A stretch of DNA of 64,000 nucleotides from Bdellovibrionales bacterium. Its GTDB lineage: Bacteria; Bdellovibrionota; Bdellovibrionia; Bdellovibrionales; UBA1609. The position numbers were made by a program, and so were the translations under genes. Below, in pieces: positions 18,648 to 50,000 of this stretch. The stretch lies in the NCBI GenBank assembly GCA_965205945.1, contig CBDBIB010000003.1, positions 352,001 through 416,000 on the forward strand. Direction: 5' to 3'. Below the pieces are notes generated by a model that searched no databases, was not told the origin of the DNA, and saw only the letters and a list, made by a program, of their open reading frames with translations. Positions within the stretch are counted from its first letter, which is position 1. The number at the start of each line of letters is the position of its first letter.

Positions 18648-18673
18648 ATAAAATATTAAAAGGAGTTAAAAAG

Positions 18674-19336
18674 ATGGAAGGGATATTAGATATGATTGTA
18701 AGCAGTGGCCTGGCAGGTTACTGCATAGCAGTTTTAGCAATTTTTGCACTAGGGTTAACTCTAGATAGAGTTAAAACTTTATTTTTTGATTTGTCTATTA
18801 AAACAGATGAGTTTATTGCTCAGGTAAGAAGTCTAGTCGTTTCAGGTCAAATTGAAGAAGCTGTAACATTCAGTGATGCTAATAGGAAAGCTCCTGTTGC
18901 TCATATTGTAAAAGCTATTGTTGAGAGAGCAGATAGAGATGAAGAGTCTATTAGAAAAGGAATGGAAATTTCATTTTCTGAGATTTTACCAAAAATAACT
19001 CAAAGACTAGGTTATTTAGCAATGATTTCAAATGTTGTAACTCTCATAGGTTTATTGGGTACAATTACGGGTTTGATTTTATCTTTTGAAGCTGTTGCAA
19101 ATGCAGATCCATCTCAAAAAGGTGAAATGCTTGCACAAGGTATATCTCTTGCTATGAACACAACCGCATTAGGATTATCAGTAGCGATTCCAGTAATGAT
19201 GATTTATTCAATTTTACATGCAAAGCAAAATAAAATTTTAAATGAATGTGTTGAGCAATCATCTAAAATTATGGATTTACTATCTAGTCGAATCTACACT
19301 CAAAGTGAAAAGAGTAAAGATAATAAAGTCGCATAA
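18674..19336 (+). CDS. MotA/TolQ/ExbB proton channel (AglR-like)
   Basis: TLIGLLGTITGLI, LAQGISLAMNTTALGL. Confidence 0.93.
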   Translation: MEGILDMIVSSGLAGYCIAVLAIFALGLTLDRVKTLFFDLSIKTDEFIAQVRSLVVSGQIEEAVTFSDANRKAPVAHIVKAIVERADRDEESIRKGMEISFSEILPKITQRLGYLAMISNVVTLIGLLGTITGLILSFEAVANADPSQKGEMLAQGISLAMNTTALGLSVAIPVMMIYSILHAKQNKILNECVEQSSKIMDLLSSRIYTQSEKSKDNKVA

Positions 19337-19356
19337 GAAGAGGAAAGTAGATTAAA

Positions 19357-19911
19357 ATGTTTAATTTAAAAGATTTTATAGAAGATCAAAATGAAGGTGA
19401 AAAAAGTTTAGAAATAGACTTATCTCCTCTTTTAGCTTTAATGGTGACCTTGATTCCTGTGTTATTGTTGCAGACTTCATTTTTAACACTTGCTATGATT
19501 GAAACATCGCTTCCAATTCTTTCTGATGTAAAGCAAAAACCAGTAGTTAAGAAAGAAAATGAAATTGATTTTGATTTAAATGTTGCTGCTAAAAAAGAAA
19601 GTTCTTTTGAAGTAAAAGTGCAGGTGAATAGTAAAGTTGTTAAGAAAGTTAAGATTAAAGCGTTAGAAGGGGAATTTAATTTAAAAGGTTTGCGAGAAGA
19701 GCTGTCGCTTTTAAAAATGAAATATCCTAAAGAGGTGGGAGCAAAGCTTACTCCTGTTGATGATGTTAGTTATGAAAATATAATTAAAATTTTAGATACG
19801 ATGAGAAGAGATGATTCTGGGAAACAATATTACTTTAAAGATGATCAAGGTAGAATGGTTGAAACTTCGATGCTATTTCCAGATGTAGTTTTTGGAAATA
19901 TAGCTAAATAA
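19357..19911 (+). CDS. ExbD/TolR-family protein (AglQ/AglS-like) lacking the TM Asp
   Basis: DLSPLLALMVTLIPVLL TM helix; VSYENIIKILD. Confidence 0.88.
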   Translation: MFNLKDFIEDQNEGEKSLEIDLSPLLALMVTLIPVLLLQTSFLTLAMIETSLPILSDVKQKPVVKKENEIDFDLNVAAKKESSFEVKVQVNSKVVKKVKIKALEGEFNLKGLREELSLLKMKYPKEVGAKLTPVDDVSYENIIKILDTMRRDDSGKQYYFKDDQGRMVETSMLFPDVVFGNIAK

Positions 19912-19920
19912 GAGGAAAAG

Positions 19921-20436
19921 ATGTCTGTAATAGATGAAGTTATTAAAAAATCAAAAAAAAATGATAGTTTTGGTCTACAACTAACAGCAATGGTTGATAT
20001 GTTTACAATTATGATTGTCTTTTTATTAAAAAGCTATGATTCATCTACATTAGAGATTAAAAATGTTGATAATTTAAAATTACCAGCTTCAGTAACGGCC
20101 TCTGTTCCAGAAGAAGCGTTATTGATGCTGATTTCTCAAAAAGCAATATTTATTAATAATAAGAAAATTGCAGGCATTACAAATGGAAAAATAGAGGTTG
20201 AATTTTTATCAAAAAATGATGAGGACTATATAGAACCGTTATTTAAAGAACTTAATAAAGAAGCTAAGAAAATTGAAAAAATCGCAGAAAGAAACTCTAC
20301 TGTTAAGTTTAAAGGTAAAGTTTTTATGCAGGCAGATAAAAAACTTCATTATTCAGTATTAAGAAAGGTTTTATATACAGCTACAATGGCTGGGTATGGA
20401 GATTTAAGACTTGCTGCCATTAATGGGGCTAAGTAG
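19921..20436 (+). CDS. ExbD/TolR-family protein (AglS/AglQ-like)
   Basis: LTAMVDMFTIMIVFLL; QADKKLHYSVLRKVLYT. Confidence 0.9.
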   Translation: MSVIDEVIKKSKKNDSFGLQLTAMVDMFTIMIVFLLKSYDSSTLEIKNVDNLKLPASVTASVPEEALLMLISQKAIFINNKKIAGITNGKIEVEFLSKNDEDYIEPLFKELNKEAKKIEKIAERNSTVKFKGKVFMQADKKLHYSVLRKVLYTATMAGYGDLRLAAINGAK

Positions 20437-23355: not shown

Positions 23356-23356
23356 A

Positions 23357-24301
23357 ATGAAATATGGTCTGGTGGTATTAGGATTTATTTTTATTTTAGG
23401 ATGTGCTACAAGCCCATCTAGTAAAATGAGCTATGTTCAAGGCTTAAAGGGTTTAAAGCAAGATTTTCAAGATGTTAAGAAAATAGAGGTTTTATATAGC
23501 AGTGGTATTAAGGCATCATCAAACCTTAAAGTTTTAAGAGCTCAAGTTTCTTGTGAAGAATATGAAAATATAGATAAAAAAAAATGGAGAAGAATGCTTG
23601 AAATAGGTTACTCTTGTATTAAAAAAAAGAACTGGGGTGCTTTATCAGTTATTGCTAAGAGCCTTTCACATAACCATTTAAAAGCTCCTTGGGGGCCATA
23701 TTATAGAAGTATTATAGCGGAACAAGAGGGTGATTTTGCTCGAGCTATTTGGATGGTGGATTTAGCATTAAAAAAGGCTCCAGATAATCCTATAATTATT
23801 TTTCAAAAAGCTAGAATCTTATGGCTAATTAAAAATGAATCTGCAGCATATAAGATGATGAAAAAAGTGGTAAAGCTTAATCCAAAAAATTATGATGCAC
23901 TTTTATTTTTAGGAAATATTTATTATAGGGATCAAGATTTTAAAGAAGCACTGGGTTTTTATAAAAAAGTTTTAAAGTACAATTACAAAGATGCTGCATA
24001 TAGAGCAGCAATGGGAGAATCTAACTTTTATTTAAGAAATTATCAAGAAAGTATTAAGCATTATAAAGCGGCGGCTGTAAGATCTAAGCTAAATGCATCG
24101 TTATTTTATAAATTAGGATTGTCATATAAAAATTTAAAAAATTGGACAAATGCAAAATTTTATTTAGAAAAAGCAATAGCACAAAGAAGAAAGGGTCGAA
24201 GTTTAGCTTCACTCTCGGATGAAAAAATAAGGACTCAGCTTAAAATAGTAGAAGCTAAAATTAGAGAAATTAAGGGGAATAAAAATGAAAAAACTAAGTA
24301 A
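23357..24301 (+). CDS. TPR lipoprotein (GltE/AglT-like)
   Basis: Lipobox ILGC, tandem TPRs, position in the cluster. Confidence 0.75.
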   Translation: MKYGLVVLGFIFILGCATSPSSKMSYVQGLKGLKQDFQDVKKIEVLYSSGIKASSNLKVLRAQVSCEEYENIDKKKWRRMLEIGYSCIKKKNWGALSVIAKSLSHNHLKAPWGPYYRSIIAEQEGDFARAIWMVDLALKKAPDNPIIIFQKARILWLIKNESAAYKMMKKVVKLNPKNYDALLFLGNIYYRDQDFKEALGFYKKVLKYNYKDAAYRAAMGESNFYLRNYQESIKHYKAAAVRSKLNASLFYKLGLSYKNLKNWTNAKFYLEKAIAQRRKGRSLASLSDEKIRTQLKIVEAKIREIKGNKNEKTK

Positions 24302-24539
24302 TTGTACCCTTATATTTTTATTCATGCTTTGTTTTATTTTTGTTATTCCACTAGGCTCATATGCTAAGAAAAATAAAAGACAAACTATAGATTTAGAGGG
24401 TGCTGATATTGATGGTGAAGTAAGATCTCCTACAGGAGATTATGTTCTTCAAAAGAGTGGCGTAGATTTTCTTCCTTTGTATGAGAAAAAGAAAGAAATG
24501 AATAAAGAAATTAAAAAGACTGTACACTTTTTGAGGTAA
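24285..24539 (+). CDS. Small exported protein (GltF-like)
   Basis: Signal peptide then IDLEGADIDGEVRSPTGDYV; sits between the TPR gene and the FHA-TonB gene, as in glt clusters. Confidence 0.7.
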   Translation: MKKLSNCTLIFLFMLCFIFVIPLGSYAKKNKRQTIDLEGADIDGEVRSPTGDYVLQKSGVDFLPLYEKKKEMNKEIKKTVHFLR

Positions 24540-24542
24540 GGT

Positions 24543-26081
24543 ATGAAAGAATTATTAATAAAACATGAGCTTAATGGAAAGGTGATTAATAGGTTTAGAG
24601 TTAAACCAAATGTTAAATCCGATGTATTCATTGTAGGTTCAAGTAGAAAAGCTAATATTCGAATTATAGGAGATAATATTTCTCCTATACATGCGGCTTT
24701 TGAAGTGAGAAACGGTGTTTGGAATATAATTGACTTAGGAAGTCAAACTGGTACTTGGCTTAAAAATAAACCGATTTTAGAAAATGAAGTAAATCATTTA
24801 ATTCATGTTCGTATTGGTGAACACAGTTTAAGTGTTGAACCCATTGCAACCATTGATGATAGAGTTTTTAAAGAATCCAAAAAAATTGATATTGCAGGTA
24901 ATAACGCTACTGTATATCAACAAATTGCAATATTTTATCAAAATAAGCTTGTAGAGTCATATCTTGAAAAACCTAAAAAAGATTTAAAAATTCCTTATGG
25001 GAAAGAATTAATTGATATTAAGGCCCCCGTTAATGCTGATTGGATTGAAAATAAGAGAAGGGACTATGTTATTAAAAATAGACTTGTTCGCTCAGCAAAA
25101 TTTGAAAATAAAGAAAAATCTATTTGGTCAGTATTTCCAAAAGATTTAGTAAAACCGTTTAGCTACGCTTTTGGTTCAGCGTGTTTATTCTTTCTTTCCC
25201 TGTATATTATTCCAAAAGCTTTAAATTCAGATCCTGGTGGGCTTAAAGATAATCAGTATACAAGATTAATCTTTGATCAAAAAACTATTGAAAAACAAAG
25301 GAAAAAATCAGCTGTTCTCATTAAAAAGTTAGAAGAGAAAAAAATTGATAAAGTAGTAAAAACCAAAAAGGTCACATCAAAAATAAAAAATTCAGAAAAA
25401 AAATTAGCAAAACTTGCTCCATCTAGAAGTAGTCAGGTGATTAGGGCTAAAGTAGATAAAGTAGTTTCTAGTATTAAGGCCTCAGGGTTAAGTTCTTTAG
25501 TAAGTAAGGTTTCACAAAGGGCATCAAGTAATGCAAGAATTATAAAATCTAGTGGTTTTAAGGCGGGTTCTGGGCAGGGTAGTAGAGCATTTGCATCTAT
25601 TAACGATGTTAAAAACAGTGCTAAGCTTAGTGATGCAACAAAAAAAGGTTTATTTAGAGTAAGGGGGATTTCAACAGGTGGAGAGGCTGGTGGGAGTAAG
25701 GTTTCTTCAAGCCTTGGTGGATTGTCTGGTACTGGGATTGGATCGGCTACAGTGGGGGCTTTAGATGAGGAAACTGAGGTAGAAGGAGGTCTAACAGCTA
25801 GTCAAATAGCTAGGGTAGTTAAGAAAAATTTGGGTGCGATAAGGTATTGTTATGAAAGACAACTAGTGGCAAATCCAAATCTTTATGGAAAAATCAAAGT
25901 TGAATTTGTGATTTCTCCGACAGGTAAAGTGGTAACACAAAGAATTAAATCAACAACAATGCAACATGCTTTAACAGAGGGTTGTATTTTAAGAAAAATT
26001 AAGAAATGGGTGTTTCCATTTCCAAAGGGAGGTTCGGAAGTAGCTGTTTCTTACCCTTTTTATTTTAAATCAACAAAATAA
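24543..26081 (+). CDS. FHA + TM + Gly-rich linker + TonB-like AgmX/PglI C-terminal domain (GltG-like)
   Basis: FHA (ISPIHA...DLGSQTGT); IRYCYERQL...GKIKVEFVI...CIL...WVFPFPKGG...VSYPF. Confidence 0.9.
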   Translation: MKELLIKHELNGKVINRFRVKPNVKSDVFIVGSSRKANIRIIGDNISPIHAAFEVRNGVWNIIDLGSQTGTWLKNKPILENEVNHLIHVRIGEHSLSVEPIATIDDRVFKESKKIDIAGNNATVYQQIAIFYQNKLVESYLEKPKKDLKIPYGKELIDIKAPVNADWIENKRRDYVIKNRLVRSAKFENKEKSIWSVFPKDLVKPFSYAFGSACLFFLSLYIIPKALNSDPGGLKDNQYTRLIFDQKTIEKQRKKSAVLIKKLEEKKIDKVVKTKKVTSKIKNSEKKLAKLAPSRSSQVIRAKVDKVVSSIKASGLSSLVSKVSQRASSNARIIKSSGFKAGSGQGSRAFASINDVKNSAKLSDATKKGLFRVRGISTGGEAGGSKVSSSLGGLSGTGIGSATVGALDEETEVEGGLTASQIARVVKKNLGAIRYCYERQLVANPNLYGKIKVEFVISPTGKVVTQRIKSTTMQHALTEGCILRKIKKWVFPFPKGGSEVAVSYPFYFKSTK

Positions 26082-26107
26082 TATGGAACTTTGTAGAGGT
26101 AATAAAA

Positions 26108-26854
26108 GTGAGATTAATATATAAAGTAGCGATAATAGTGTTAATGAGTTTTAGTTGTTTAGCTTTGGCTCAAAGTAAAAAAGATGAATCTCCTAAAAAG
26201 ATAGATATTCAGAATTTAGAAAAAAGATACTGGGCTCCAAAAGATAAAAAATTTAAAGTTGTTCAAAATAGAACGTATACAAAAACAAAAAAACTATCAC
26301 TTAGTTTAGCACCATCTTTAATGCTTAATGAAGAGTATTCTAAAGGTTTTGGAATGAGTATGGCTATGGGGTATTACTTTAATGATAGATATGGGCTTGA
26401 ATTAGAATATCAAGTTATATCTTTAAATGATAATGACCTTGTTAAGCAAATTCAAACTATTGGCGAAGGTAGTGGTGCATGGGCAAATCATGGTAAAAGC
26501 GTGTCCTACTATGGGGCTGCAGCTAGATGGATACCTTTTTATGCAAAAATGAGTTTTTTAGGAAATAAAATTGTATATTTTGATTTAAGCCTAGGTTTAA
26601 GTGCTGGAACTATTAAATATGAGCAGCAATTAAGAACAGACATAAAAGAACCAATAAAAAAAGCCATAGCGTTTGGTTTTGATATTAGTCAGAGTTTTTA
26701 TATATTTAAAAAACTACTGCTAAGAGCAGACTATAAACATAGGTTTTACTCTCAAGAAATTATAGAAGGTGGGCGTGTAGATACAGGTAAATTTATAAGA
26801 GATCGTCAAGAAGATAGTATTTTACTTAACTTAGGGCTAACTTATTTGTTTTAG
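26108..26854 (+). CDS. Outer-membrane beta-barrel (GltA/B/H-like)
   Basis: Signal peptide, VVQNRTYTK, WIPFYAKMS, terminal YLF. Confidence 0.85.
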   Translation: MRLIYKVAIIVLMSFSCLALAQSKKDESPKKIDIQNLEKRYWAPKDKKFKVVQNRTYTKTKKLSLSLAPSLMLNEEYSKGFGMSMAMGYYFNDRYGLELEYQVISLNDNDLVKQIQTIGEGSGAWANHGKSVSYYGAAARWIPFYAKMSFLGNKIVYFDLSLGLSAGTIKYEQQLRTDIKEPIKKAIAFGFDISQSFYIFKKLLLRADYKHRFYSQEIIEGGRVDTGKFIRDRQEDSILLNLGLTYLF

Positions 26855-26868
26855 AATAAGGAATTGAT

Positions 26869-29124
26869 ATGAAGATTAATATAAAAATTTTAAAAAGAAC
26901 TATATGTATAGGATGTGTCTCTTTTTTAGCTTCACATGTTTGTGCGGATGATGTTTCTTTAAAGAGCAACTACGTTGAACTAGGTAAAATGAAAAATCAG
27001 TCAAGTTTTGATATTTTAAATCCGGGTCAAATTTTAGATAATTTTGTGATTCCTATATATGATAAGAATCAACAAGAAGCAACTATTTTAGAGTCATCAG
27101 TCCCTAAGTTTAAAAATATAAAGACAAATAAAGGAAAATTATCTAAAAAGAAAACAAGTAAATTTGCAAGAAAACTTAGAGCTTTAAGGGTATATCCTAT
27201 TCCTAAATACAGTTTTGGCAGAGAAAAGATCTTAAAAAGAAAGAATATAGGTTGGAGTTTAGGTAATTATCAAGGAATTAAATCTATTAATTTAAAGAAG
27301 AAAAGCGCTTTAAATATATTAAAAAATCTAAAAAAAATAAAAGACTTTAATCTAGGTTTAGCAAAAAAGAAGAGAGTTAATTTAAAAGAAATTAATCAAA
27401 AAGTAGTAGTTCAAAATGATATTGATCAGATTCAATTTTCTTTTAAAAGTAATTTTAAATTTAATCTTTTGCCCATGTATTTAAGAAAGTTAAAGGATCA
27501 TGATCTTTTAGCAGCGGATATTTTATTTGAAGAGAAAAAATCCTGTCAAGAGGTAGTGCCAATATCACAATTTTTGCAGGATAAAGTGACAGTAGACAAT
27601 AGAGTAAAGTTTTATAGAGGAATGTGTTTACATGATTTTAAAATGTTTTCAGAATCAATTCCATTATTATCAGAAGTTATCGGAACAAGTACAGGTTATT
27701 ACATAAAAAAAGCTGTTGGAAAAATTCTTGAAGGTCTTCCTAAAGGTTATGAGGGTTTGATAGCAAAAGAACTCACTCCTAAAAAAGTTTATGATAAACT
27801 TAATCAAAAACAAAAAGATAGGTATAACTATATTTTAGCAAAAGGTAATTTTATCAATGAAAAATATAAGAGAGCTAAAGCGCATGCAAAACGTGTGAGT
27901 GATGAGTCTTTAGATAAATATGATGCTAAGTTTATAGCGAGCACATCACAATATATGAGTGGGCTCTTGCCTGAGGGAATAAAAATTATGCAAGATTTAA
28001 AGGTTGAGTATTTAAAATCTAAAAATCAAAACAGTGATTTTAATTCACTTATTAATTTAACTCTAGCAAGGTTTCAATTTGAGAGAGGGAGTTATAAAAA
28101 AGCTATTAAAAATTATGAATTAGTTTCTAGAGAACATCCTTTGTGGGTAGATAGTTTAATAGAAAAAGGTTGGGCTCAGATAAAACTTGGTGATTTTTCA
28201 GGAGCAATTGGTAATATGTTTACTCTTCATTCACCATTTTTTAAAGATGCGTTTATACCAGAATCATATGTTATAAGAACTATTGGATATTTAAACTTAT
28301 GTCAGTTTGGAGATGCAAATTCAACATTAGGATACCTTGAGACAGAGTATCCAGATCAAAAAGGCAGGATTATAAGGTTTTTAGAAGATAAAAAAAACCA
28401 TTATCAAACACTGCTAGATTATTTAAAAGTAAATGATGAAAAATTATATGAACTTAACACACTTCCAGCTTCAACCATAAGAGAAATGGGAAGAGATAGA
28501 GATTTTTTAATGGTCCAAACAAAATTAAATAATATTATTGATGAAATTCCAGTATTTAAAGAATTTGCAGTGAATATTATGAAGAAAAGAAGAGCGCTTA
28601 AAGATGAAATTCTTAAATTAACAGAAGAATCAAATAAGTTAAGGGTTAAAGAGGGAAAGGCTTTAAAAAATAATAAGTTAGATATTGCTAAAACATTAAA
28701 GAAAAAAAGAAAATCAGTTTTTGATGAAGGTTTTTCATTAAACTATAGAATTAAGCTTTTTAATAAAGGTATTATTGCTTATAAGAAAGCTAATGGGGAT
28801 GCTGTTAGGCGCGCTGAAAAAATGAGAGATGATTACTTGATTCAGGCAGAAAAGACTCTTAAAGAAAGTCTGGGTAATATTGAAACTAGACTTGAAACGG
28901 TTTTAAGAAACAATGATCTTTTAAGGTATGAGATATTTGCTAATTCAGGGAGAAATATTAGATATCGTATTGCTGGTGGGCAAATTAAACAAGAGGCAGG
29001 TAGCAGAAAGCCAGCTAAAGCACGCTCTAAAAAAGACTATGGTTGGGAGTTTAAAGGTGAATTTTGGCAAGACGAAGTTGGAAGATTTAAATCAAGTTTA
29101 ACAAACTTATGCCCTAAAAAATAA
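26869..29124 (+). CDS. Exported TPR protein (GltC-like)
   Basis: AIGNMFTLHSPFF...PESYV...YLNLCQF and terminal WEFKGEFWQDEVG...C. Confidence 0.8.
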   Translation: MKINIKILKRTICIGCVSFLASHVCADDVSLKSNYVELGKMKNQSSFDILNPGQILDNFVIPIYDKNQQEATILESSVPKFKNIKTNKGKLSKKKTSKFARKLRALRVYPIPKYSFGREKILKRKNIGWSLGNYQGIKSINLKKKSALNILKNLKKIKDFNLGLAKKKRVNLKEINQKVVVQNDIDQIQFSFKSNFKFNLLPMYLRKLKDHDLLAADILFEEKKSCQEVVPISQFLQDKVTVDNRVKFYRGMCLHDFKMFSESIPLLSEVIGTSTGYYIKKAVGKILEGLPKGYEGLIAKELTPKKVYDKLNQKQKDRYNYILAKGNFINEKYKRAKAHAKRVSDESLDKYDAKFIASTSQYMSGLLPEGIKIMQDLKVEYLKSKNQNSDFNSLINLTLARFQFERGSYKKAIKNYELVSREHPLWVDSLIEKGWAQIKLGDFSGAIGNMFTLHSPFFKDAFIPESYVIRTIGYLNLCQFGDANSTLGYLETEYPDQKGRIIRFLEDKKNHYQTLLDYLKVNDEKLYELNTLPASTIREMGRDRDFLMVQTKLNNIIDEIPVFKEFAVNIMKKRRALKDEILKLTEESNKLRVKEGKALKNNKLDIAKTLKKKRKSVFDEGFSLNYRIKLFNKGIIAYKKANGDAVRRAEKMRDDYLIQAEKTLKESLGNIETRLETVLRNNDLLRYEIFANSGRNIRYRIAGGQIKQEAGSRKPAKARSKKDYGWEFKGEFWQDEVGRFKSSLTNLCPKK

Positions 29125-29139
29125 CAAAGGACTAATGGT

Positions 29140-29772
29140 ATGAAAAAAATAACTATATTATTATTTACAGTTTTTTTTGCAAGTGATGCATATTCGCAAG
29201 CAGACATTAATAGAAAAATGAATCTTCTGGATCAAAATGTTAAAAATTCAGGAAATAATTTTAACCAGTTTAAGGATAATTTTAATATTTCAGTAAAAAA
29301 TTTTAATGAAGCAACACGAGTTATAAACGAACTTAGAAGTTTAAAAAAACAAGCTTTAAGAGATACAAAAAGAGCAAAGCTAAATTCCTTAGTTTATGGA
29401 CAAGTTATAGGTAAGTATAATGAATTTATTGCAGCAGAAGAGGCTAATATTTTAAAAGAAGAAGAGGCTATTAAAAAACTTGAAAAATTAGTTGAAAGTA
29501 TTAAAGCTAACACTCATAAGAGAAGAGAGCTTATTGTTACTTATAGTGCTGAAATTAAAAACGCTGAGGCAGAAGCTGGTGTTTGGAAAGGCAAGCAAAG
29601 AGAAGTTACTTCAGTAATAAAAGATATTGATGAGCGTGAGGATGAAGCTCTTGAAGAACGGAGTAAATGGATGGAGAAAAAAGAGATTTATAAAAAAGAA
29701 ACAGGTAAATGGTCTAAGGAATTTCAAAAAGCTAAGAAAACACTGTTAACGTTTGAAAAAATTCGAGATTAA
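29140..29772 (+). CDS. Exported coiled-coil hypothetical protein
   Basis: Signal peptide ending AYS, K/E-rich heptad pattern; 15 bp after the gltC-like gene. Confidence 0.75.
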   Translation: MKKITILLFTVFFASDAYSQADINRKMNLLDQNVKNSGNNFNQFKDNFNISVKNFNEATRVINELRSLKKQALRDTKRAKLNSLVYGQVIGKYNEFIAAEEANILKEEEAIKKLEKLVESIKANTHKRRELIVTYSAEIKNAEAEAGVWKGKQREVTSVIKDIDEREDEALEERSKWMEKKEIYKKETGKWSKEFQKAKKTLLTFEKIRD

Positions 29773-41278: not shown

Positions 41279-41943
41279 GGGTTCTTATAAAACTCTTCCT
41301 TACTACGATCAAATATATAATCTATAAAGTTTTTACCCTTAGCTCTTTGAATTGATTGATGCCCCTTTGACACCCATACTGTTTCAAAGCCTATTTCTCG
41401 TCCTATTTGAAGATCATGTAGAGTGTCCCCAACAACAACACCTTTAATAAAATTGTGCTTTTCTTTAATAGCTCTTCCTCGATGAAGCTTAGAACCGCCA
41501 TTAAAATCCTTTGCTCCAGATAAAACCTTAAAATAATTTGAGATATCATGATGTTTGATTTGAAATTCTAGTTCTGTAATATGTGCGGCTGAAAAAAGCA
41601 CCTGTATAACCTTAGCTTCATAAAGATGCCTTAAACAGTCTTCAGCTCCATTGTGAAGCTTTGGTTTATGATGATTGGCTTTGTAATTAACAGCAAAAAG
41701 ATCAGTCATTTCATCCCTGCTTATTCCAAGGCGCTCTAAATCCAGCTTATCGTAGTACTTACTTATTGGGAGAGTGAAGTTGTCCTGGTAAAACTGTTTT
41801 GAAAGTGCTGCAATGCTTTTGCTTTTAAAAATCTGGTTGTTAACGCTTAAAGAATAATCTAGATCATCTAATAATGTTCCATTCCAATCCCAAAAAATAC
41901 AGGCTTTTGTCTTAAGATAGCTTAAAAATTCTAAAGAAGTCAT
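41275..41943 (-). CDS. HAD-family hydrolase (phosphoglycolate phosphatase-like)
   Basis: WDWNGTLLDD, VGDTLHD, GHQS. Confidence 0.92.
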   Translation of the reverse strand: MTSLEFLSYLKTKACIFWDWNGTLLDDLDYSLSVNNQIFKSKSIAALSKQFYQDNFTLPISKYYDKLDLERLGISRDEMTDLFAVNYKANHHKPKLHNGAEDCLRHLYEAKVIQVLFSAAHITELEFQIKHHDISNYFKVLSGAKDFNGGSKLHRGRAIKEKHNFIKGVVVGDTLHDLQIGREIGFETVWVSKGHQSIQRAKGKNFIDYIFDRSKEEFYKNP

Positions 41944-42221
41944 AACACCTAAATCACATAAAAACTCTGTATTAGTCCATAAGAAATCGTAAAATGACTT
42001 AAGGATGAAATAAACTTATAAAAATGCCTCATAATTAGCGGCCTTATTTTTATAATTTATTTGGGCATCGGTCTAGATAACTCTAGATAAGCTTCTACTT
42101 TGCTATTTATAACATAAAATAAGGTGTGAAAATTTTTTTAAATTTAAAGGCAGAGGTATATGAGTAGTCGCCATTTTTTTAAACATAAAATTCATAATTT
42201 TTTAAAGAAAGTAAGGGTTTT

Positions 42222-43940
42222 ATGAAAAGGCTTGTAGGTGTTGTAATCTTATTTCTTTCTTGGGGTTGTAGCGAATCAGAATTTTCATCTGTAAGTTGTG
42301 GGGATTTAAATCATTGTAAAACGGTTGTCGAAAACAGCTTGGCATCTTGGTATACTGGAGATTGGTCCCGCTGTAGTCTTGCTTGTGGAAATGGTCAAAC
42401 AACTAGGTCCGTACAATGTAAAAGCGTTAGAAACGTTGTAGTTCCAGATTCAGAGTGTTTAAGTACAAAACCTCCTTTAAGTACCTCTTGTAATAGTGAG
42501 CCTTGTGTAGGTGATTACAGCTGGAATATTGGCCCTTATAAAGCCTGCTCTCAGACTTGTGGCGGGGGGACTAAGTCTAGAGATGTTACATGCCAATCTA
42601 GAAGCGGTGTTTTTGTGGCTGACAGCTTTTGTTCGGAAATAAAGCCTATTATAAGTGCATCATGTAATTTAAACACTTGCCTGGAGGATACTTTTAACTG
42701 GGTTCCTGGCTCGTGGGAAACCTGCTCTCAAACTTGTGGTGGTGGGACTTATTCACGCTCTGTTACCTGTCGCAATGGTTTAAACATTATTGTTGATGAA
42801 AGCTTTTGTACAGAAACAAAATCTAAATTAAAGGGTTCATGTAACACTCACTCATGCTCTTATAACTACGCTTGGGTTGAAGGAAACTGGGGAGCCTGTT
42901 CTCAAACATGTGGCGGTGGAACACAATCTAGATCTCAAGGGTGTAGAAGAAATGACGAAGTTTATGTCCAGCATGCTCTATGTACTTCTCCTGCGCCACC
43001 AACATCACAAGCATGTAATACACAAGTTTGCTCTCCCTCGACTTGTACCACTCATCAAATTTCTAAAACTACTTCTGCTAGCGAAAATCAATTAGATATT
43101 TTACTTGTAATAGATGATTCTGGGTCCATGTACCAGGATAATATAAGGCTTGCTGCTAAACTTGGTGGTTTTGTTAATAACTTAAGCTCTTCAAATATTG
43201 ATTGGCAGATGTGTATTACAAGCACTAGTGTGGATTATTTTCAAGGTCGACCTGTTCAGTGGCGAGGTGCTAACTCTGGTCATATTTTAACAAGAAACTC
43301 AGGAAATCTTTCAGGTATTTTAACAGAGACTGTAAAATGGATCGGGGCAGGATTTAGTTCCGATGAGCAAGCAATTAAAGCTGTAAATCTTTCATTAAGA
43401 GACAATACAGATTCACACTGTTATAGAGAGGATGCTGGACTTGCCATCATCATTATCTCTGATGAGGATGAAAGAAGTGTTGGAGGGGTTCGTGCTTTAA
43501 ACCCTGGTCAATATAAACCTCTTACAGCTGATAACCAGCCTTCTTCAGTAATGAGGACTATAAATACAGTCTTTGGAATTGGAAAAAGAGTGAGCGTTCA
43601 TCCTATTATAGTAAAAGATGTTGAGTGTAAAGAAATACAAGATGCTCAAGGAGAGGTGTCTTTTTATGGCACTAAATACAAACAACTTTATAGCCATATC
43701 GGTGGAAGTTTACATAGTATTTGTGAGCCTGATTTTTCTATAACACTAGCTAATTCTCACACTACAATTATATCTTCTTTAGCGGCTTTAGAATTAAGCT
43801 GCACGCCTAATGCAGCACCCATAGTGCATGTAAATGGAGTCTCTTATGCACCTTATATTACTATTGTTGGTGATGAAATTACCTTTAATCCTGTAGTTAG
43901 TGGATCAGCTACAATAACCGGCTCTTACTGCTGTGAATAA
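42222..43940 (+). CDS. Lipoprotein with four thrombospondin type-1 (ADAMTS-like) repeats and a vWA domain
   Basis: Lipobox SWGC; 4 x Wxxg.W..CS..CG.G...R.V.C...C...CN...C at about 42348-43031; DILLVIDDSGS MIDAS; IIISDEDE. Confidence 0.92.
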   Translation: MKRLVGVVILFLSWGCSESEFSSVSCGDLNHCKTVVENSLASWYTGDWSRCSLACGNGQTTRSVQCKSVRNVVVPDSECLSTKPPLSTSCNSEPCVGDYSWNIGPYKACSQTCGGGTKSRDVTCQSRSGVFVADSFCSEIKPIISASCNLNTCLEDTFNWVPGSWETCSQTCGGGTYSRSVTCRNGLNIIVDESFCTETKSKLKGSCNTHSCSYNYAWVEGNWGACSQTCGGGTQSRSQGCRRNDEVYVQHALCTSPAPPTSQACNTQVCSPSTCTTHQISKTTSASENQLDILLVIDDSGSMYQDNIRLAAKLGGFVNNLSSSNIDWQMCITSTSVDYFQGRPVQWRGANSGHILTRNSGNLSGILTETVKWIGAGFSSDEQAIKAVNLSLRDNTDSHCYREDAGLAIIIISDEDERSVGGVRALNPGQYKPLTADNQPSSVMRTINTVFGIGKRVSVHPIIVKDVECKEIQDAQGEVSFYGTKYKQLYSHIGGSLHSICEPDFSITLANSHTTIISSLAALELSCTPNAAPIVHVNGVSYAPYITIVGDEITFNPVVSGSATITGSYCCE

Positions 43941-43955
43941 GAGAGAAAAAATAAT

Positions 43956-44399
43956 ATGAATAACACTCAAACAAGAAATATAAAGATCGTATCCTTCTTT
44001 GTTTTAACACTTTGTTTTTGCTCGCTTATGGTTTTTTTAAATCAACAAAATCAAATTTCAATAATACAGATAAAAGCACTTAATAGAGCACAAATCTACG
44101 TAAATAGGATGGTTGAATCTGGGTTTATGGTTAAATCTTCTAAGCCTAGAATATCTAGGGGCTTAGCATCTATAACTTATGAACAAGAATTTTTAGCAGG
44201 GTTTGTTGGTTTAGACCCTTGGGGGCACCCGTTTAACTTCTTAGTAAAAAAAGACCCTATAAATAAGGATACAGGAATTATTATTGTTTGGTCCTTAGGA
44301 GCTAATAATAAATTAGAAACATCAAAGGATATGGTTTTTAAAGATCATGAATCATTTAAGGGTGATGATTTTGGAAAAGCCTATCTGTTTAAATTTTAG
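43956..44399 (+). CDS. Membrane-anchored T2SS GspG-like domain protein
   Basis: DPWGHPF...VWSLGANNK...GDD; TM anchor without a GFTLIE prepilin motif. Confidence 0.7.
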   Translation: MNNTQTRNIKIVSFFVLTLCFCSLMVFLNQQNQISIIQIKALNRAQIYVNRMVESGFMVKSSKPRISRGLASITYEQEFLAGFVGLDPWGHPFNFLVKKDPINKDTGIIIVWSLGANNKLETSKDMVFKDHESFKGDDFGKAYLFKF

Positions 44400-44451
44400 T
44401 TTAAAAAACTTTAGCTTTTTTAAAAAGAGATTTAAATAACAGTTTTATTTA

Positions 44452-44472
44452 ATCTAAGTTCGAACTTTTTAA
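44452..44472. mobile_element. Degenerate solo IS982-type terminal repeat
   Basis: ATCTAAGTTCGAACTTTTTAA versus ACCCGAATTCGAACTTTTTAA (reverse complement of 52025-52045). Confidence 0.4.
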
Positions 44473-44594
44473 GTTTATGCTAGAAGTCTTTACATTTAAA
44501 TCATACTAATTTTATAAAATAATTTCTTAAATTAAATTTTTTTTAAAATAAAAGGACATCATAAAATTTTATAGTTTCTTATACAGATTATTTT

Positions 44595-46382
44595 TTATTT
44601 ATTTGCATGAAGCTTTCTTCTTCTAAGTCTAATAGACTTAGGGGTTAGCTCTACAAGCTCATCATCAACAATCCATTCTAAGGCTTGCTCTAAAGTCATT
44701 TTTCTAACCCTTGTAAGTTTGACAGCCTCATCGCTACCTGATGCTCGAACATTTGTTAGTTTCTTTTCTCTGCATACGTTTACGTTAAGCTCTCCACCTT
44801 TATTGTACTCACCAATTATCATACCTTCATAAACTTTGACTCCAGATTCAATAAACATTGATCCACGATCTTCAAGATTAAATAAAGAGTATGATGTTGC
44901 TTTTCCTTTTCTATCAGAAACTATTCTTCCAGCCTGTCTTTTTTTGATTTCACCCTTAAACGGTGCATAGTTTTTAAATTCAGTGCTTAAAAGTCCTGTG
45001 CCACGAGTATCTGTTAAAAACTGACCTCCATACCCGATAAGACCTCTAGAGGGGATTTCAAATTGAAGCTGACTTCTACCAGACTCCCTGTTAATCATTC
45101 CTGTTATGATGCCTTTACGCTCTTGCAATTTTTGAGTTACAATCCCTGTGTAATTAGTTTGAACATCAATATAAACTGTTTCAATAGGTTCACATTTTTC
45201 ATCATCAATGGCCATCATTAGAACTTGAGGTTGACTAATCATGAACTCAAAACCTTCTCTTCTAAAAGTTTCCATAATAACTGCAAGTTGTAATTCTCCA
45301 CGGCCAATTAACTGAAAAGTATCTGCTTTACTAGTCAACAAAAGTCTGATGGAAACGTTTTTAAGACACTCTGTTTTAAGACGCTCTAAAATCTTACGAC
45401 TTGTAACCTCTTTGCCTTCAAGCCCTGCAAAAGGGCCATCATTAACTGATACAAAAAGTCCAACTGTCGGTTCATCAACTTTAATTCGTTTAATTGGAGT
45501 ATCTACCGTTGTTGAGGCTAAGGTGTCTCCAATTTCAATACTGTTAAAACCTGAAATAATCGCAATATCTCCAGCATATAAATGTTTAACATTCATTGTT
45601 TTATTACCAACAAAGGTTGAAAGTGCGCTTACTCTAAACTGAACTATTTTGTCATTTTCCTGAAATTTTTTAATTGAATCTCCAACTTTAATAAAACCAC
45701 TTAAAACACGACCCACAGCAAGTCTTCCAACAAAGTGACTGTATTGAATATCAGAAGTAAGCATTGAAAAATCACCTTCTTTTATTTTAGGTGGCGGAAT
45801 TTCGGAGATGATAAGATCAAATATGCATGTAATATTATCTGTAGAACTAACCTCTTCAAATTTTTGAGAAGCTTTACCTTCTTTTGCAATAGCGTAAACA
45901 ACTTTAAAATCAAGCTGCTCTCCACTTGTTGCAAGCTCCATAAAAAGTTCTTCAATTTCTAATAAGACCTCTTTTTCACGGGCGTCTTTACGATCCACTT
46001 TATTAAGGATAACAATAATTTTTTTGTCTTGTTCTAATGCTTTTTTTAAAACAAATCTTGTTTGTGGAAGTGGACCTTCTGCAGCATCTACTAAAAGTAA
46101 AGCGCCATCAACCATATTTAAAACACGCTCAACTTCACCACCAAAATCCCCATGGCCTGGAGTGTCTACGATATTAACTTTTACATCCTTATATTCAAAA
46201 GAAGCATTCTTTGCAGCAATTGTAATTCCACGTTCTTTTTCAATATCCATTGAATCCATCAAACGCTCTTGTTGTTTTTTATGATCTTTAAAGATACCAG
46301 ATTGTCCTAAGAGTTTATCTACAAGAGTAGTTTTTCCATGATCAACATGTGCAATAACAGCAATATTTCGATATTCTTTCAT
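44595..46382 (-). CDS. typA: Translational GTPase TypA/BipA
   Basis: RNIAVIAHVDHGKTTLVD, ERGITI, GRGELQL, NVCREKKLTNVRASG. Confidence 0.98.
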   Translation of the reverse strand: MKEYRNIAVIAHVDHGKTTLVDKLLGQSGIFKDHKKQQERLMDSMDIEKERGITIAAKNASFEYKDVKVNIVDTPGHGDFGGEVERVLNMVDGALLLVDAAEGPLPQTRFVLKKALEQDKKIIVILNKVDRKDAREKEVLLEIEELFMELATSGEQLDFKVVYAIAKEGKASQKFEEVSSTDNITCIFDLIISEIPPPKIKEGDFSMLTSDIQYSHFVGRLAVGRVLSGFIKVGDSIKKFQENDKIVQFRVSALSTFVGNKTMNVKHLYAGDIAIISGFNSIEIGDTLASTTVDTPIKRIKVDEPTVGLFVSVNDGPFAGLEGKEVTSRKILERLKTECLKNVSIRLLLTSKADTFQLIGRGELQLAVIMETFRREGFEFMISQPQVLMMAIDDEKCEPIETVYIDVQTNYTGIVTQKLQERKGIITGMINRESGRSQLQFEIPSRGLIGYGGQFLTDTRGTGLLSTEFKNYAPFKGEIKKRQAGRIVSDRKGKATSYSLFNLEDRGSMFIESGVKVYEGMIIGEYNKGGELNVNVCREKKLTNVRASGSDEAVKLTRVRKMTLEQALEWIVDDELVELTPKSIRLRRRKLHANK

Positions 46383-48242: not shown

Positions 48243-50000
48243 ATGAGTAAGGTTATACAATGCTTATTTATAATAGGTTTAGTTGGTTGCAACCAGGAAA
48301 GTAACGTAGAGTTTTCTTCTATTAATAACATGTTAATTTTAAAAGGGAATATGACTCTTGACTTTGGTGAAGTTATTATTGGAGAGAGTAAAAGTCTTGA
48401 TTACGAAATAAGAAACCTTACAAATCTAAGTGTTGAACCTGGAAGCTTTAAACTTATGCCTGTTAAAATGCTTAACACTCAAAACTCCTCCCCTTTTAAA
48501 TTAGAATTAGGTACTTGCACAGAGATCTTAAAAAAACTTAATAAGTGTTCTGTAAAGATAACCTATACACCTGAAAAAAAGGAGATCATTAATACTCGTT
48601 TAAAAATATTTTATAAATATAGCTCTGTTTTAAATTCAAACATTCTTATTGAGAATGTGCATTCTAAAGGAATTGCCCCTTTTACAGCTAAATTTAGTAT
48701 TTATGGTAGTGATTTGAATTTAAATCTTAGGTTAAATTCTTCTTATACATATAACTTTATGGTTCATTGGGGGGATGGAACCTCGGGAGTTGTTACTTCA
48801 TCAAGTGATTTAGATAAAAATCATACTTATTCATCTTCAGGGACTTATATAGTTAAAATCACTGGGCGCTGCCCATATCTTAACTTTCGTGATAGCGAGC
48901 AAATAATTGAGGTTACAGAATTAGGAGACACAGGGTGGGAAAGTTTTAGTCATATGTTTAATAATGCAGATAACTTAACTCTTGTTAATGGTGGCTCAAC
49001 TAGACATGTTACTAATATGAGCTCTATGTTTTTAAATGCAGCTTTAGCTAACCCTGACACCTCTGACTGGGACACTTCTAAGGTTACTGATATGAGGTCT
49101 ATGTTTTATAGTGCAGCTTTAGCTAACCCTGACACCTCTAACTGGGACACTTCTAATGTTACTTATATGAACTGGATGTTTTCTAATACAGCTTTAGCTA
49201 ACCCTGACACCTCTAACTGGGACACTTCTAAGGTTACTGATATGAGATGGATGTTTTCTAATACAGCTTTAGCTAACCCTGACACCTCTAACTGGGACAC
49301 TTCTAAGGTTACTAGTATGAACTGGATGTTTTATAATGCAGCTTTAGCTAACCCTGACACCTCTAACTGGGACACTTCTAATGTTACTTATATGAGCCAT
49401 ATGTTTTTTAATGCAGATTTAGCTAACCCTGACACCTCTAACTGGGACACTTCTAAGGTTACTGATATGAACTCTATGTTTTCTAGTACAGCTTTAGCTA
49501 ACCCTGACACCTCTAACTGGGACACTTCTAAGGTTACTGATATGAACTCTATGTTTTCTAGTGCAGATTTAGCTAACCCTGACACCTCTGACTGGGACAC
49601 TTCTAAGGTTACTGATATGAGGTCTATGTTTAATAATGCAGCTTTAGCTAACCCTGACACCTCTGACTGGGACACTTCTAAGGTTACTGATATGAGGTCT
49701 ATGTTTAATAATGCAGCTTTAGCTAACCCTGACACCTCTAACTGGGACACTTCTAAGGTTACTGATATGAGGTCTATGTTTAATAATGCAGCTTTAGCTA
49801 ACCCTGACACCTCTAACTGGGATACTTCTAAGGTTACTGATATGAGCTGGATGTTTTCTAGTGCAGCTTCTTTTGATCAAGACATCAGTTCATGGAATGT
49901 TTCTAACGTTGTCGAGTGCAACAGTTTTTCATACCAAACTTTAACTTCTTGGACTCTTGCTGAAAAACCTAATTTTACACGTTGTAGCCCTGATTATTAA
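48243..50000 (+). CDS. BspA-family/DUF285 surface lipoprotein (Ig-like + PKD-like + 25-aa repeats)
   Basis: Lipobox LVGC, LDFGEV..G Ig-like domain, HWGDG...HTY...GTY, repeats WDTSKVTDM.SMF, cap FDQDISSWNVSNV. Confidence 0.93.
   Translation: MSKVIQCLFIIGLVGCNQESNVEFSSINNMLILKGNMTLDFGEVIIGESKSLDYEIRNLTNLSVEPGSFKLMPVKMLNTQNSSPFKLELGTCTEILKKLNKCSVKITYTPEKKEIINTRLKIFYKYSSVLNSNILIENVHSKGIAPFTAKFSIYGSDLNLNLRLNSSYTYNFMVHWGDGTSGVVTSSSDLDKNHTYSSSGTYIVKITGRCPYLNFRDSEQIIEVTELGDTGWESFSHMFNNADNLTLVNGGSTRHVTNMSSMFLNAALANPDTSDWDTSKVTDMRSMFYSAALANPDTSNWDTSNVTYMNWMFSNTALANPDTSNWDTSKVTDMRWMFSNTALANPDTSNWDTSKVTSMNWMFYNAALANPDTSNWDTSNVTYMSHMFFNADLANPDTSNWDTSKVTDMNSMFSSTALANPDTSNWDTSKVTDMNSMFSSADLANPDTSDWDTSKVTDMRSMFNNAALANPDTSDWDTSKVTDMRSMFNNAALANPDTSNWDTSKVTDMRSMFNNAALANPDTSNWDTSKVTDMSWMFSSAASFDQDISSWNVSNVVECNSFSYQTLTSWTLAEKPNFTRCSPDY
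49008..49868 (+). repeat. In-frame 75-bp tandem repeat, about 11.5 units
   Basis: TTAGCTAACCCTGACACCTCT recurs exactly every 75 bp from 49044 to 49794 (11 copies). Confidence 0.98.

Follow-up and report, generated by a model that had tools for sequence, protein, structure and literature searches.

The window analyzed here, a 64,000-nucleotide stretch of a 1.87-Mb Bdellovibrionales genome, contains at positions 42222..43940 (+ strand, as are all features of the gene below) an open reading frame of 572 amino acids plus a stop codon, coding for a putative lipoprotein with a stalk of thrombospondin type-1 repeats (TSRs) and a MIDAS head. The organism itself is probably predatory, judging purely by the names given to its relatives' records. 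The protein begins with a signal peptide (42222..42269), MKRLVGVVILFLSWG, followed by a lipobox-type cysteine, Cys16, that all 38 aligned relatives share; 96 of the 115 family members that have an M start show a loose lipobox-like pattern. The product is thus likely to be lipidated at Cys16, and is probably anchored in the outer membrane and exposed at the surface. A short N-terminal linker (42270..42347; SESEF...C...C) carries a cysteine pair, Cys26 and Cys32, both nearly invariant in the 38-sequence alignment, and residues 1 to 38 have pLDDT values below 50 in the predicted structure. Profile matches and the structure model give the order along the chain as anchor, TSRs 1 to 4, and then a vWA head, and with an N-terminal lipid anchor the head would be distal to the membrane. 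There is no C-terminal hydrophobic segment, and the protein ends in a beta-rich domain (...GSYCCE). A scan of positions 41800 to 44700 for promoter and terminator consensus sequences returned no more matches than the shuffled expectation and gave no usable signal. The GC content of the gene is slightly raised (37% vs about 32%), but we do not accept this as evidence of recent transfer, because the Cys/Gly-rich repeats alone lift the GC content and the family is old in the order.

The four TSRs, located at 42348..42506, 42522..42680, 42699..42857, and 42873..43031, have six cysteines each, and each aligns to model positions 1 to 55 of 55 of PF19030 (TSP1_ADAMTS), with E values of 7.7e-14, 2.7e-14, 1.2e-11, and 5.6e-11, respectively. 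Single repeats score 44 to 55 bits and the whole protein scores 156.9 bits in four stretches (E 1.5e-46), against a gathering threshold of 23.8 bits; PF00090 (TSP_1) also matches above its threshold (59.3 bits for the whole protein; threshold, 21.6 bits). Beside the six cysteines, each repeat has one or two tryptophans and two or three arginines, and all 24 cysteines are invariant across 38 sequences. In the model, the region is composed of short paired strands (pLDDT about 80 to 89), and Foldseek matches of the whole-protein model include properdin and THSD7A, with TM-scores that are low over the flexible array.

The repeats lead into an entry strand of a small beta-rich domain (residues ∼276 to 284) and then the vWA/MIDAS head (residues ∼285 to 521; together 43035..43784), and C-terminal strands with a conserved Y-C-C end (43785..43937; residues 522 to 571 in the model) complete the small domain. 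The head has a Rossmann-like vWA fold in the predicted structure, and the flanking strands make it an insertion within a domain built from N- and C-terminal beta-rich parts. The MIDAS DxSxS motif (43113..43127) reads D298-D-S300-G-S302; D298, S300, and S302 are invariant in all 38 sequences, as are T333 and T335, and D-x-S-x-S is present in 21 of the 21 other TSR-fused heads. An acidic loop after beta-4 (43458..43472; S413-D414-E415-D-E417), in which S413, D414, E415, and E417 are invariant, is likely the expected second MIDAS element, and E213 of the Bdellovibrio protein Bd0875 appears to lie in the equivalent motif. The DxSxS motif together with the downstream Thr and Asp/Glu residues would provide the predicted MIDAS metal ligands. 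The first-pass annotation had described a lipoprotein with four TSRs and a vWA domain that bears a MIDAS, and the PF19030 match, the invariant MIDAS, and the lipoprotein-type leader all bear this out; both of the TSR models that it proposed searching recognize the protein, but the Pfam VWA model PF00092 is below threshold on the head (E 0.12; 13 bits vs 23.8), since the sequence is too divergent for this general model. The structural matches include the vWA proteins BatB and 4jdu; TRAP and MIC2 are absent from the 50 structural matches listed, which excludes nothing.

The TSR-MIDAS architecture is not a one-off but belongs to a large conserved database family. Among the best 120 database hits, 118 have the MIDAS head (with the protein itself counted), and 117 of these 118 carry one or more TSRs; full-length relatives share 35 to 76% identity with the protein. 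The fusion is present in at least 12 of the 121 genomes sampled from the order, with carriers in four families, genomes of 2 to 4.5 Mb, and divergence down to 35 to 40% identity. A literature search, mostly of work outside subscription journals, found no bacterial adhesin combining TSRs and a MIDAS, and the one paper retrieved that mentions thrombospondin several times concerns type-3 repeats only. Stalks of one, two, three, four, and eight TSRs occur naturally in the family, and TSR-less relatives of the head have Pro/Thr-rich linkers or Ig/PKD arrays in the place of the stalk, which is why the repeats most likely act as a rigid stalk that can be exchanged for other modules. Other relatives have trypsin-like or TIR N-terminal parts, and the head is therefore not restricted to stalks. 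The closest TSR-less relative in the genomes searched is an unnamed MIDAS lipoprotein paralog of 423 to 447 amino acids in genus g21, which is 40% identical to the head over about 317 residues and shares the lipobox, SDEDERS(I/V)GG, GSICDSDY, and a terminal cysteine with it, but has a linker of ∼45 residues in place of the TSR stalk. This natural series of stalk lengths and types (TSR, Pro/Thr-rich linker, and Ig/PKD) is well suited to testing how reach relates to adhesion.

The genome codes for eight paralogs of the MIDAS head. The NF052240 (MIDASAdhsBdello) profile matches the protein at 96.7 bits (E 1.6e-27), and the equivalog cutoff is a whole-protein score of 700 bits; genuine equivalogs, present in two g21 genomes, reach 722 to 724 bits and are 26% identical to the head. 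The g21 genomes with the 423- to 447-residue paralog also carry loci at the NF052240 equivalog level (L048/L049). A separate paralog is the genome's own Bd0875-like gene (G000 contig C1, 354410-355564; 33% identity), which is the best within-genome match of the head at 77 bits, whereas the copy in the agl/glt-type cluster described below scores only 50 bits. Judged by these profile and pairwise scores, the head is a member of the Bd0875 superfamily but not a Bd0875 equivalog. In the excerpted text of Tyson et al. 2024 (PMC11003981), Bd0875 is a MIDAS-family prey-invasion adhesin of Bdellovibrio bacteriovorus whose function is lost in D66A and E213A mutants, Bd0875 and Bd1483 both have the MIDAS inserted in an N- plus C-terminal beta-rich domain, and both were found in a surface secretome, with Bd0875 detected at the predator surface. 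The same excerpts report a predation defect only for the bd0875 deletion and none for bd1483, bd0767, or bd3132, and superfamily membership is therefore not predictive of an invasion role. Few adhesins have been shown to act in prey invasion by Bdellovibrio, and MIDAS-family lipoproteins are among them.

On balance, the product of 42222..43940 is probably a surface adhesin that makes contact with prey or the substratum through a metal-dependent head on a stalk, a reading that we hold with somewhat better than even confidence. The leader would be cleaved at Cys16 and the protein anchored by lipid in the outer membrane. A single TSR spans ∼5 nm in solved structures, and four disulfide-locked repeats could form a thin, rigid stalk of roughly 15 to 20 nm, carrying the head past the cell's own surface layer. 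There, a divalent cation in the MIDAS would complete its coordination through an acidic group of the ligand, and the resulting bond would be reversible and force tolerant, as for integrins, TRAP/MIC2, and Bd0875. Family relationship points to components of the prey-cell envelope, or to the substratum, as the likeliest targets when the predator makes contact. A bolder version, which we regard as unlikely, is that this is an independently assembled bacterial counterpart of TRAP/MIC2, in which the TSR-stalked head would bind the prey envelope or the substratum in a catch-and-release manner under the pull of a motor, either gliding machinery or pilus retraction. If true, stick-and-slip invasion adhesion by TSR-plus-vWA proteins would have two separate origins, one in eukaryotes that parasitize cells and one in bacteria that prey on them, and the conserved GspG-like neighbor described below would be part of a display or coupling apparatus.

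The same window contains a full agl/glt-type cluster (MotA/ExbB, two ExbD proteins, GltG, GltC, and an outer membrane barrel), headed by a Bd1483-type gliding-cluster MIDAS lipoprotein (17685-18647) that matches the CglD NCBIfam model (E 6.9e-8). A GltA/B-like barrel is encoded at 26108-26854. The first-pass annotation had considered the TSR head homologous to this cluster-head lipoprotein, and it is, with 25% identity (E 1e-10). It had also called the vWA domain gliding type and suggested that the protein could be an alternative adhesin for the Agl-Glt motor, binding eukaryotic matrix or glycans and possibly built from horizontally acquired TSRs. As a gliding protein it would be a substratum adhesin loaded on that machine, similar in role to CglB or Bd1483 but with a TSR extension. 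There are precedents: the Bd1483-type protein is encoded in a gliding operon (PMC2277423, PMC2797640), and CglB is described as a vWA lipoprotein that couples to the outer membrane module of Glt (PMC9946355). The head phylogeny, however, does not sustain the label and makes such an adhesin unlikely. The TSR head and the clade of gliding-cluster orthologues are on opposite sides of a split in two trees (99 SH-aLRT and 100/98, respectively), and their forced union is rejected in an AU test of a 44-row subset of the 93-row tree under LG+G4, with the group named after the tree was seen (delta lnL 84, p-AU 0.00018). A vWA domain that groups apart from the gliding-cluster proteins is an outcome that the first-pass annotation had itself named as refuting its reading. 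The genome also carries three further paralogs that are closer to the TSR head than is the cluster-head copy, and the acidic-loop signature is SDEDE in the TSR-head clade and SDEED or SNEDD in the gliding clade. Gene context points the same way. In 12 related loci, the flanking DNA (up to about 7 kb) carries no agl/glt genes, whereas 15 of the 23 cluster-head orthologues have such genes beside them, and within the window eight unrelated genes, most of them on the opposite strand, occupy the 12.4 kb between the TSR-MIDAS gene and the cluster. The protein matched none of the NCBIfam gliding models at E values up to 1. A specific tie of the TSR-MIDAS lipoprotein to the gliding motor is not supported, and of the two or more deep clades in the head family only one is tied to agl/glt clusters, which corrects a tempting link to gliding.

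A possible operon partner starts 15 nt downstream (43956..44399, + strand) and codes for a 147-residue, GspG-like (pseudopilin-like), membrane-anchored protein. The gene is single copy in the genome, and its product has an Atlas feature score of 0.95 to a "GspG family" cluster and a subthreshold match to Pfam T2SSG (E 0.052). It is the same-strand downstream neighbor in 6 of 12 related loci, representing three branches of the family, and is missing from the other six; none follows the 423- to 447-residue g21 paralog in the flank examined. Genes for a Tsp/S41 protease, a HAD hydrolase, TypA, and an OmpA-like protein were considered as partners and set aside, being kept only in close relatives. 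The recurrence of the GspG-like gene would fit a protein that is not an outward-directed adhesin but faces the periplasm or acts within the envelope, in force sensing, assembly, or tethering, perhaps with the GspG-like protein in a pseudopilus-type apparatus. In Gram-negative bacteria, the default orientation of an outer membrane lipoprotein is toward the periplasm, and neither BatB nor 4jdu, among the structural matches, is a surface adhesin. A force-sensor role is also possible for MIDAS proteins according to the excerpts of PMC11003981, although the placement of Bd0875 and Bd1483 in the surface secretome, and of Bd0875 at the predator surface, in the same source argues for exposure. Such an internal role is improbable, as a four-repeat stalk of perhaps 15 to 20 nm would be a poor fit to the periplasm and half of the loci lack the GspG-like neighbor.

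It is highly improbable that the repeats were recently gained from animals by a eukaryote-associated bacterium and serve to bind eukaryotic matrix, glycosaminoglycans, or cell surface glycans: every repeat does span the full metazoan ADAMTS-type model, the top nonbacterial matches are animal TSR arrays (32 to 34% identity), bacteria seldom have TSRs (present in 0 of 14 control genomes), and a genome of 1.87 Mb could suit host dependence, but the fusion extends across the four families of a predatory order with the genome sizes and divergence given above, and TSRs occur in 47 of the 401 genomes sampled from the phylum and in several protein contexts, so that they are a module of long standing there. 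In addition, the TSR region is near neutral (pI 7.4; 18 K+R vs 17 D+E), unlike heparin-binding TSRs, which are basic, and the replacement of TSRs by linkers or Ig arrays in related heads suggests a spacer and not a specific ligand binder.

The proposed adhesin has several counterparts among known systems. It resembles Bd0875 in being a lipobox lipoprotein with a vWA/MIDAS domain inserted in an N- plus C-terminal beta-rich domain and with a conserved DxSxS motif and acidic loop, but Bd0875 lacks a counterpart of the four-TSR stalk. Bd0875 also has a cap region of its own that is implicated in function. Bd1483-type proteins and Myxococcus xanthus CglB and CglD are also vWA lipoproteins with a MIDAS-type motif, although the Bd1483-type gliding-cluster heads belong to the other clade of the head family and the TSR-MIDAS gene, unlike theirs, is neither in nor beside an agl/glt cluster. 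CglD, as described in the excerpted text of a preprint (bioRxiv 10.1101/2023.10.19.562135), similarly combines a Cys-rich stalk with an integrin-betaI-like head, but its stalk is composed of EGF-like and thrombospondin type-3/COMP-like Ca-binding repeats, and not of type-1 repeats. Residues 271 to 572 align structurally to the betaI plus hybrid headpiece of integrin beta, with 9 to 14% identity and a high root mean square deviation over the two-domain alignment, and in contrast to integrin beta there is no alpha-subunit partner and no PSI/EGF leg. Metazoan TSR arrays (ADAMTS, properdin, THSD7A, and thrombospondin-1) have the same six-Cys ADAMTS-type repeat with a W...W...CSxxCGxGxxxR core, and there are profile matches to the structures of THSD7A (7.3e-12) and TSP-1 (1.1e-11), but the repeats here share a chain with a bacterial MIDAS head and a probable lipid anchor. 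Eukaryotic TSR motifs are subject to C-mannosylation and O-fucosylation, neither of which is expected on these repeats because the protein is bacterial.

The likeness to TRAP and MIC2 noted in the first-pass annotation holds for the two domain types and extends to their order from the membrane, with an anchor, a TSR stalk, and a MIDAS vWA head that would be distal. Only the TSRs match these proteins by sequence, with a weak direct match to TRAP (4hql; E 0.0054) and a weak match of MIC2 (4okr) to the family profile (E 0.0017); the heads are related at the fold level only, and the sequence relatives of the TSR-MIDAS head are bacterial lipoproteins. TRAP has one TSR compared with the four here, and TRAP and MIC2 are held by a transmembrane helix at the C terminus, followed by a cytoplasmic tail that binds a motor, whereas the anchor here would be an N-terminal lipid. 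To our knowledge, bacteria lack the actomyosin motor to which those tails couple. Convergence is the best reading of this resemblance. TSRs recur as extracellular modules within a single bacterial phylum, and the family would be a clear example of an architecture that converged on that of TRAP/MIC2.

The open reading frame at 42222..43940 (+) codes for a 572-aa protein, which agrees with the first-pass annotation, all of whose quoted strings are present in the sequence; no open frame of at least 80 aa overlaps it on either strand. The annotation had proposed four thrombospondin type-1 repeats (TSRs), and these are confirmed by Pfam, with four stretches matching TSP1_ADAMTS (E 1.5e-46; 156.9 bits against a cut-off of 23.8), four matching TSP_1 (E 4.3e-16), and sub-cut-off matches to TSP1_spondin and TSP1_CCN. 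The repeats (42348-42506, 42522-42680, 42699-42857, and 42873-43031, all +) each cover model positions 1-55 of 55 and contain exactly six of the 35 cysteines in the protein, and a profile search of the whole 1.87-Mb genome returns only these four TSP1 matches. The C-terminal vWA/MIDAS head scores below threshold with Pfam VWA (E 0.12; 13 bits versus 23.8) and has an acidic pI of 5.0, against a near-neutral 7.4 for the TSR region. This domain content is far beyond chance. At 1.87 Mb (97% completeness, 32% GC), the genome is itself among the smaller ones of the order, most sampled relatives having 2-4.6 Mb.

In an alignment of 38 full-length relatives (37-76% identity), Cys16 and all 24 TSR cysteines are invariant, as are the MIDAS DxSxS residues D298, S300, and S302, together with T333, T335, S413-D414-E415-x-E417, and six further cysteines in the head. 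The D-x-S-x-S motif is kept in all 21 other TSR-fused heads examined, and their acidic loop reads SDEDE in 18, SDENE in two, and ADENE in one.

The head had also been described as a gliding-type vWA domain, related to the 320-aa MIDAS lipoprotein (17685-18647, +) that heads an agl/glt-type cluster (17685-29772) coding for MotA/ExbB, two ExbD proteins, TPR proteins, GltG, a myxobacterial-type outer-membrane barrel, and GltC. Homology of the two heads is borne out (25% identity over 256 residues, E 1e-10), and the cluster copy matches both CglD (E 6.9e-8) and NF052240 (E 1.1e-10), the NCBIfam MIDASAdhsBdello model for equivalogs of Bd0875, a prey-invasion adhesin of Bdellovibrio bacteriovorus. 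The genome contains eight open frames with a MIDAS head, however, and the cluster copy (50 bits) ranks as a BLASTP partner of the TSR head behind the paralogs C1_354 (77 bits), C1_049 (62), and C3_439 (60). Head trees drew on all eight own paralogs, 21 TSR-fused relatives, the best 23 loci among cluster-copy orthologues (matched in 56/61 order genomes), and stand-alone representatives, for which a minimum length of 330 aa left 124 of 141 entries (P0122-P0262), 121 of them TSR-less. A quick tree of 93 rows, with every third TSR-less representative, splits at 99 SH-aLRT across a branch of 0.94. One side holds the genome's cluster copy with its full set of 23 orthologues and four tandemly arranged paralogs from the same genome; the other holds every one of the 22 TSR heads, C1_354, C3_439, and the stand-alone forms. 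The split recurs with support 100/98 in a careful tree of 44 rows (8/8 own paralogs, 12/23 cluster orthologues, 11/21 TSR-fused, and 13/121 TSR-less), and constraining the TSR head to join the gliding clade lowers the log-likelihood by 84 units (p-AU 0.00018 under LG+G4, for a group named after the tree was seen). The cluster-copy orthologues are really gliding-linked, as a MotA/ExbB gene lies no more than 1.5 kb away in 8/23 and the TPR and barrel genes no more than 6 kb away in 7 of the remaining 15, giving 15/23. The window's agl/glt proteins find no matches in the flanks of the related TSR-MIDAS loci (0/12), and in the window 12.4 kb and eight unrelated genes (an RND pump, OEP, a methyltransferase-like protein, two E1 dehydrogenase subunits, an S41 protease, a hypothetical protein, and a HAD hydrolase) separate the cluster from the TSR gene. 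Both splits, the AU rejection, and the lack of agl/glt neighbors thus place the TSR head apart from the gliding-cluster vWA proteins, the outcome that the first-pass annotation had named as refuting its reading, and the gliding-type designation is not supported. The acidic loops differ too, with SDEED/SNEDD-type motifs in the gliding clade versus SDEDE in most TSR-fused heads.

The cluster copy itself seems to be of the Bd1483 type, judging from the adjoining MotA/ExbB (AglR-like) gene rather than from sequence comparison with Bd1483. Its DxSxS tract is D-N-S-Y-K-T, in which the third serine is not conserved, and several of its orthologues also deviate (DNTPS, DNSPG). Outside the window, contig C1 (47034-58280) carries four MIDAS lipoprotein paralogs within ∼11 kb (58-77% mutual identity) that fall in the gliding-type head clade, yet lie outside the agl/glt cluster.

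Three complete genomes of one genus (g21) each have one locus at 697-724 bits on NF052240, above the 700-bit cut-off in 2/3. The TSR head shares 26% identity with these loci versus 40% with another paralog of the same genomes (L048/L049), a 423- to 447-aa lipoprotein with only a short linker from lipobox to head, and the organism has its own Bd0875-like gene in C1_354 (354410-355564 of contig C1; 33% identity). The TSR protein is therefore, on these comparisons, a member of the Bd0875 superfamily and not a Bd0875 equivalog.

A word-indexed database search with the TSR protein yields 457 proteins at E ≤1e-3. Among the best 120 of these, 118 (counting the window's own) carry the MIDAS head, and the other two are animal proteins matched in the TSR region only. 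Counting HMM matches that span at least 70% of a repeat, the 118 head carriers have four TSRs in 81, two in 21, one in 10, three in 4, eight in 1, and none in 1, some short entries being contig-end fragments. The few source records that assign a name use a nonspecific one ('thrombospondin type-1 domain-containing protein [Bdellovibrionales bacterium]' or 'hypothetical protein'). At order level, 57/121 sampled genomes match at E ≤1e-20, and 12/121, from four families and including the own genome, have matches starting before query residue 150 and thus TSRs fused to the head. TSP1_ADAMTS occurs in 47/401 sampled phylum genomes, in proteins of several sizes, and in 0/14 control genomes. Other Bdellovibrionota proteins carrying TSP1 repeats were seen in G375, G140, and the genus with the Bd0875-level loci; one of these genomes shows as many as 9 matches, in frames of 526 and 961 aa, another has repeats in five different frames, and the genomes of that genus have single weak repeats in frames of ∼880-950 and 1260-1835 aa. 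With only the head as query, exhaustive HMMER searching gives 2,293 cluster representatives at E ≤1e-3, 558 at 1e-10, and 87 at 1e-30, most of them stand-alone proteins of ∼350-400 aa.

The space between lipobox and head varies in make-up among relatives, being filled by Pro/Thr-rich or Gly-rich low-complexity linkers (P0123, P0137, and P0159), PKD or Big_13 Ig-like arrays (P0131, P0136, P0141, P0169, P0185, P0186, and P0221), or a short linker alone. All 12 TSR-fused rows of the 44-row tree lie in one 14-row clade (96/84), nested within which are two TSR-less rows, P0123, whose linker is Pro/Thr-rich, and P0138, with half a TSR left. A topology in which the TSR-fused rows form a clade of their own is rejected (p-AU 0.0015), and the nesting fits a single TSR gain followed by losses or replacements. 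These nested rows, the variable linkers, a repeat number of 1 to 8 in the family, and the near-neutral TSR region favor, by inference, a spacer or stalk role over specific glycosaminoglycan binding. Some metagenomic relatives fuse the head to non-stalk modules, a trypsin-like peptidase (P0175 and P0183) or TIR (P0194), and the head is therefore reused outside stalked adhesins.

Fifteen nucleotides downstream of the adhesin gene (43956-44399, +) is a gene for a 147-aa GspG-like (pseudopilin-like) membrane-anchored protein, with an N-terminal hydrophobic helix and no recognizable prepilin leader. It matches Pfam T2SSG at only E 0.052, and a language-model look-up assigns it to a 'GspG family' cluster at 0.95; it is single-copy, and a canonical GspG is located elsewhere in the genome. 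A homologue lies directly downstream on the same strand in 6/12 related loci from three branches, within or near the organism's own genus (L051, L052, and L015) and in more distant branches (L057, L058, and L016), and the remaining neighbors are conserved in close relatives only. Further along, the frame at 48243-50000 (+) codes for a protein of 585 aa. It contains PARCEL repeats, a type whose name comes from surface lipoproteins of Mycoplasma and Listeria, along with four stretches matching DUF285 (Pfam E 3.6e-96) and a sub-cut-off Mbov_0838-type NCBIfam match (E 8.5e-61).

The analysis shows which domains the TSR protein contains, which of its metal-site residues and cysteines are invariant, what fold is predicted for it, where it belongs in the family, and which genes surround it, and we read it as a putative MIDAS-family lipoprotein adhesin with a TSR stalk. 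The leader would be cleaved at Cys16 to leave a lipid-anchored protein, the four disulfide-locked TSRs would build a rod, and a MIDAS cation in the head at its tip would bind an acidic group of the ligand, giving reversible adhesion. Contact with the prey envelope or a substratum is the likeliest use by analogy, as Bd0875 is seen at the predator-prey junction and requires D66 and E213 for function (PMC11003981), with caution because deletions of bd1483, bd0767, and bd3132 have no predation phenotype in the same study (PMC11003981). We found no published account of a bacterial TSR-plus-MIDAS adhesin in a search of main texts, largely from nonsubscription journals, and neither 'thrombospondin' nor 'TSP' occurs in the text of Tyson et al. 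(PMC11003981), who do liken Bdellovibrio MIDAS adhesins in general to MIC2/TRAP. The TRAP/MIC2 likeness proposed at first pass stands for domain content, and extends to domain order relative to the membrane, although the TSR protein would be anchored by an N-terminal lipid, and TRAP/MIC2 by a C-terminal helix whose tail binds the motor; the heads are related at the fold level only, and a motor link for the TSR protein is hypothetical.
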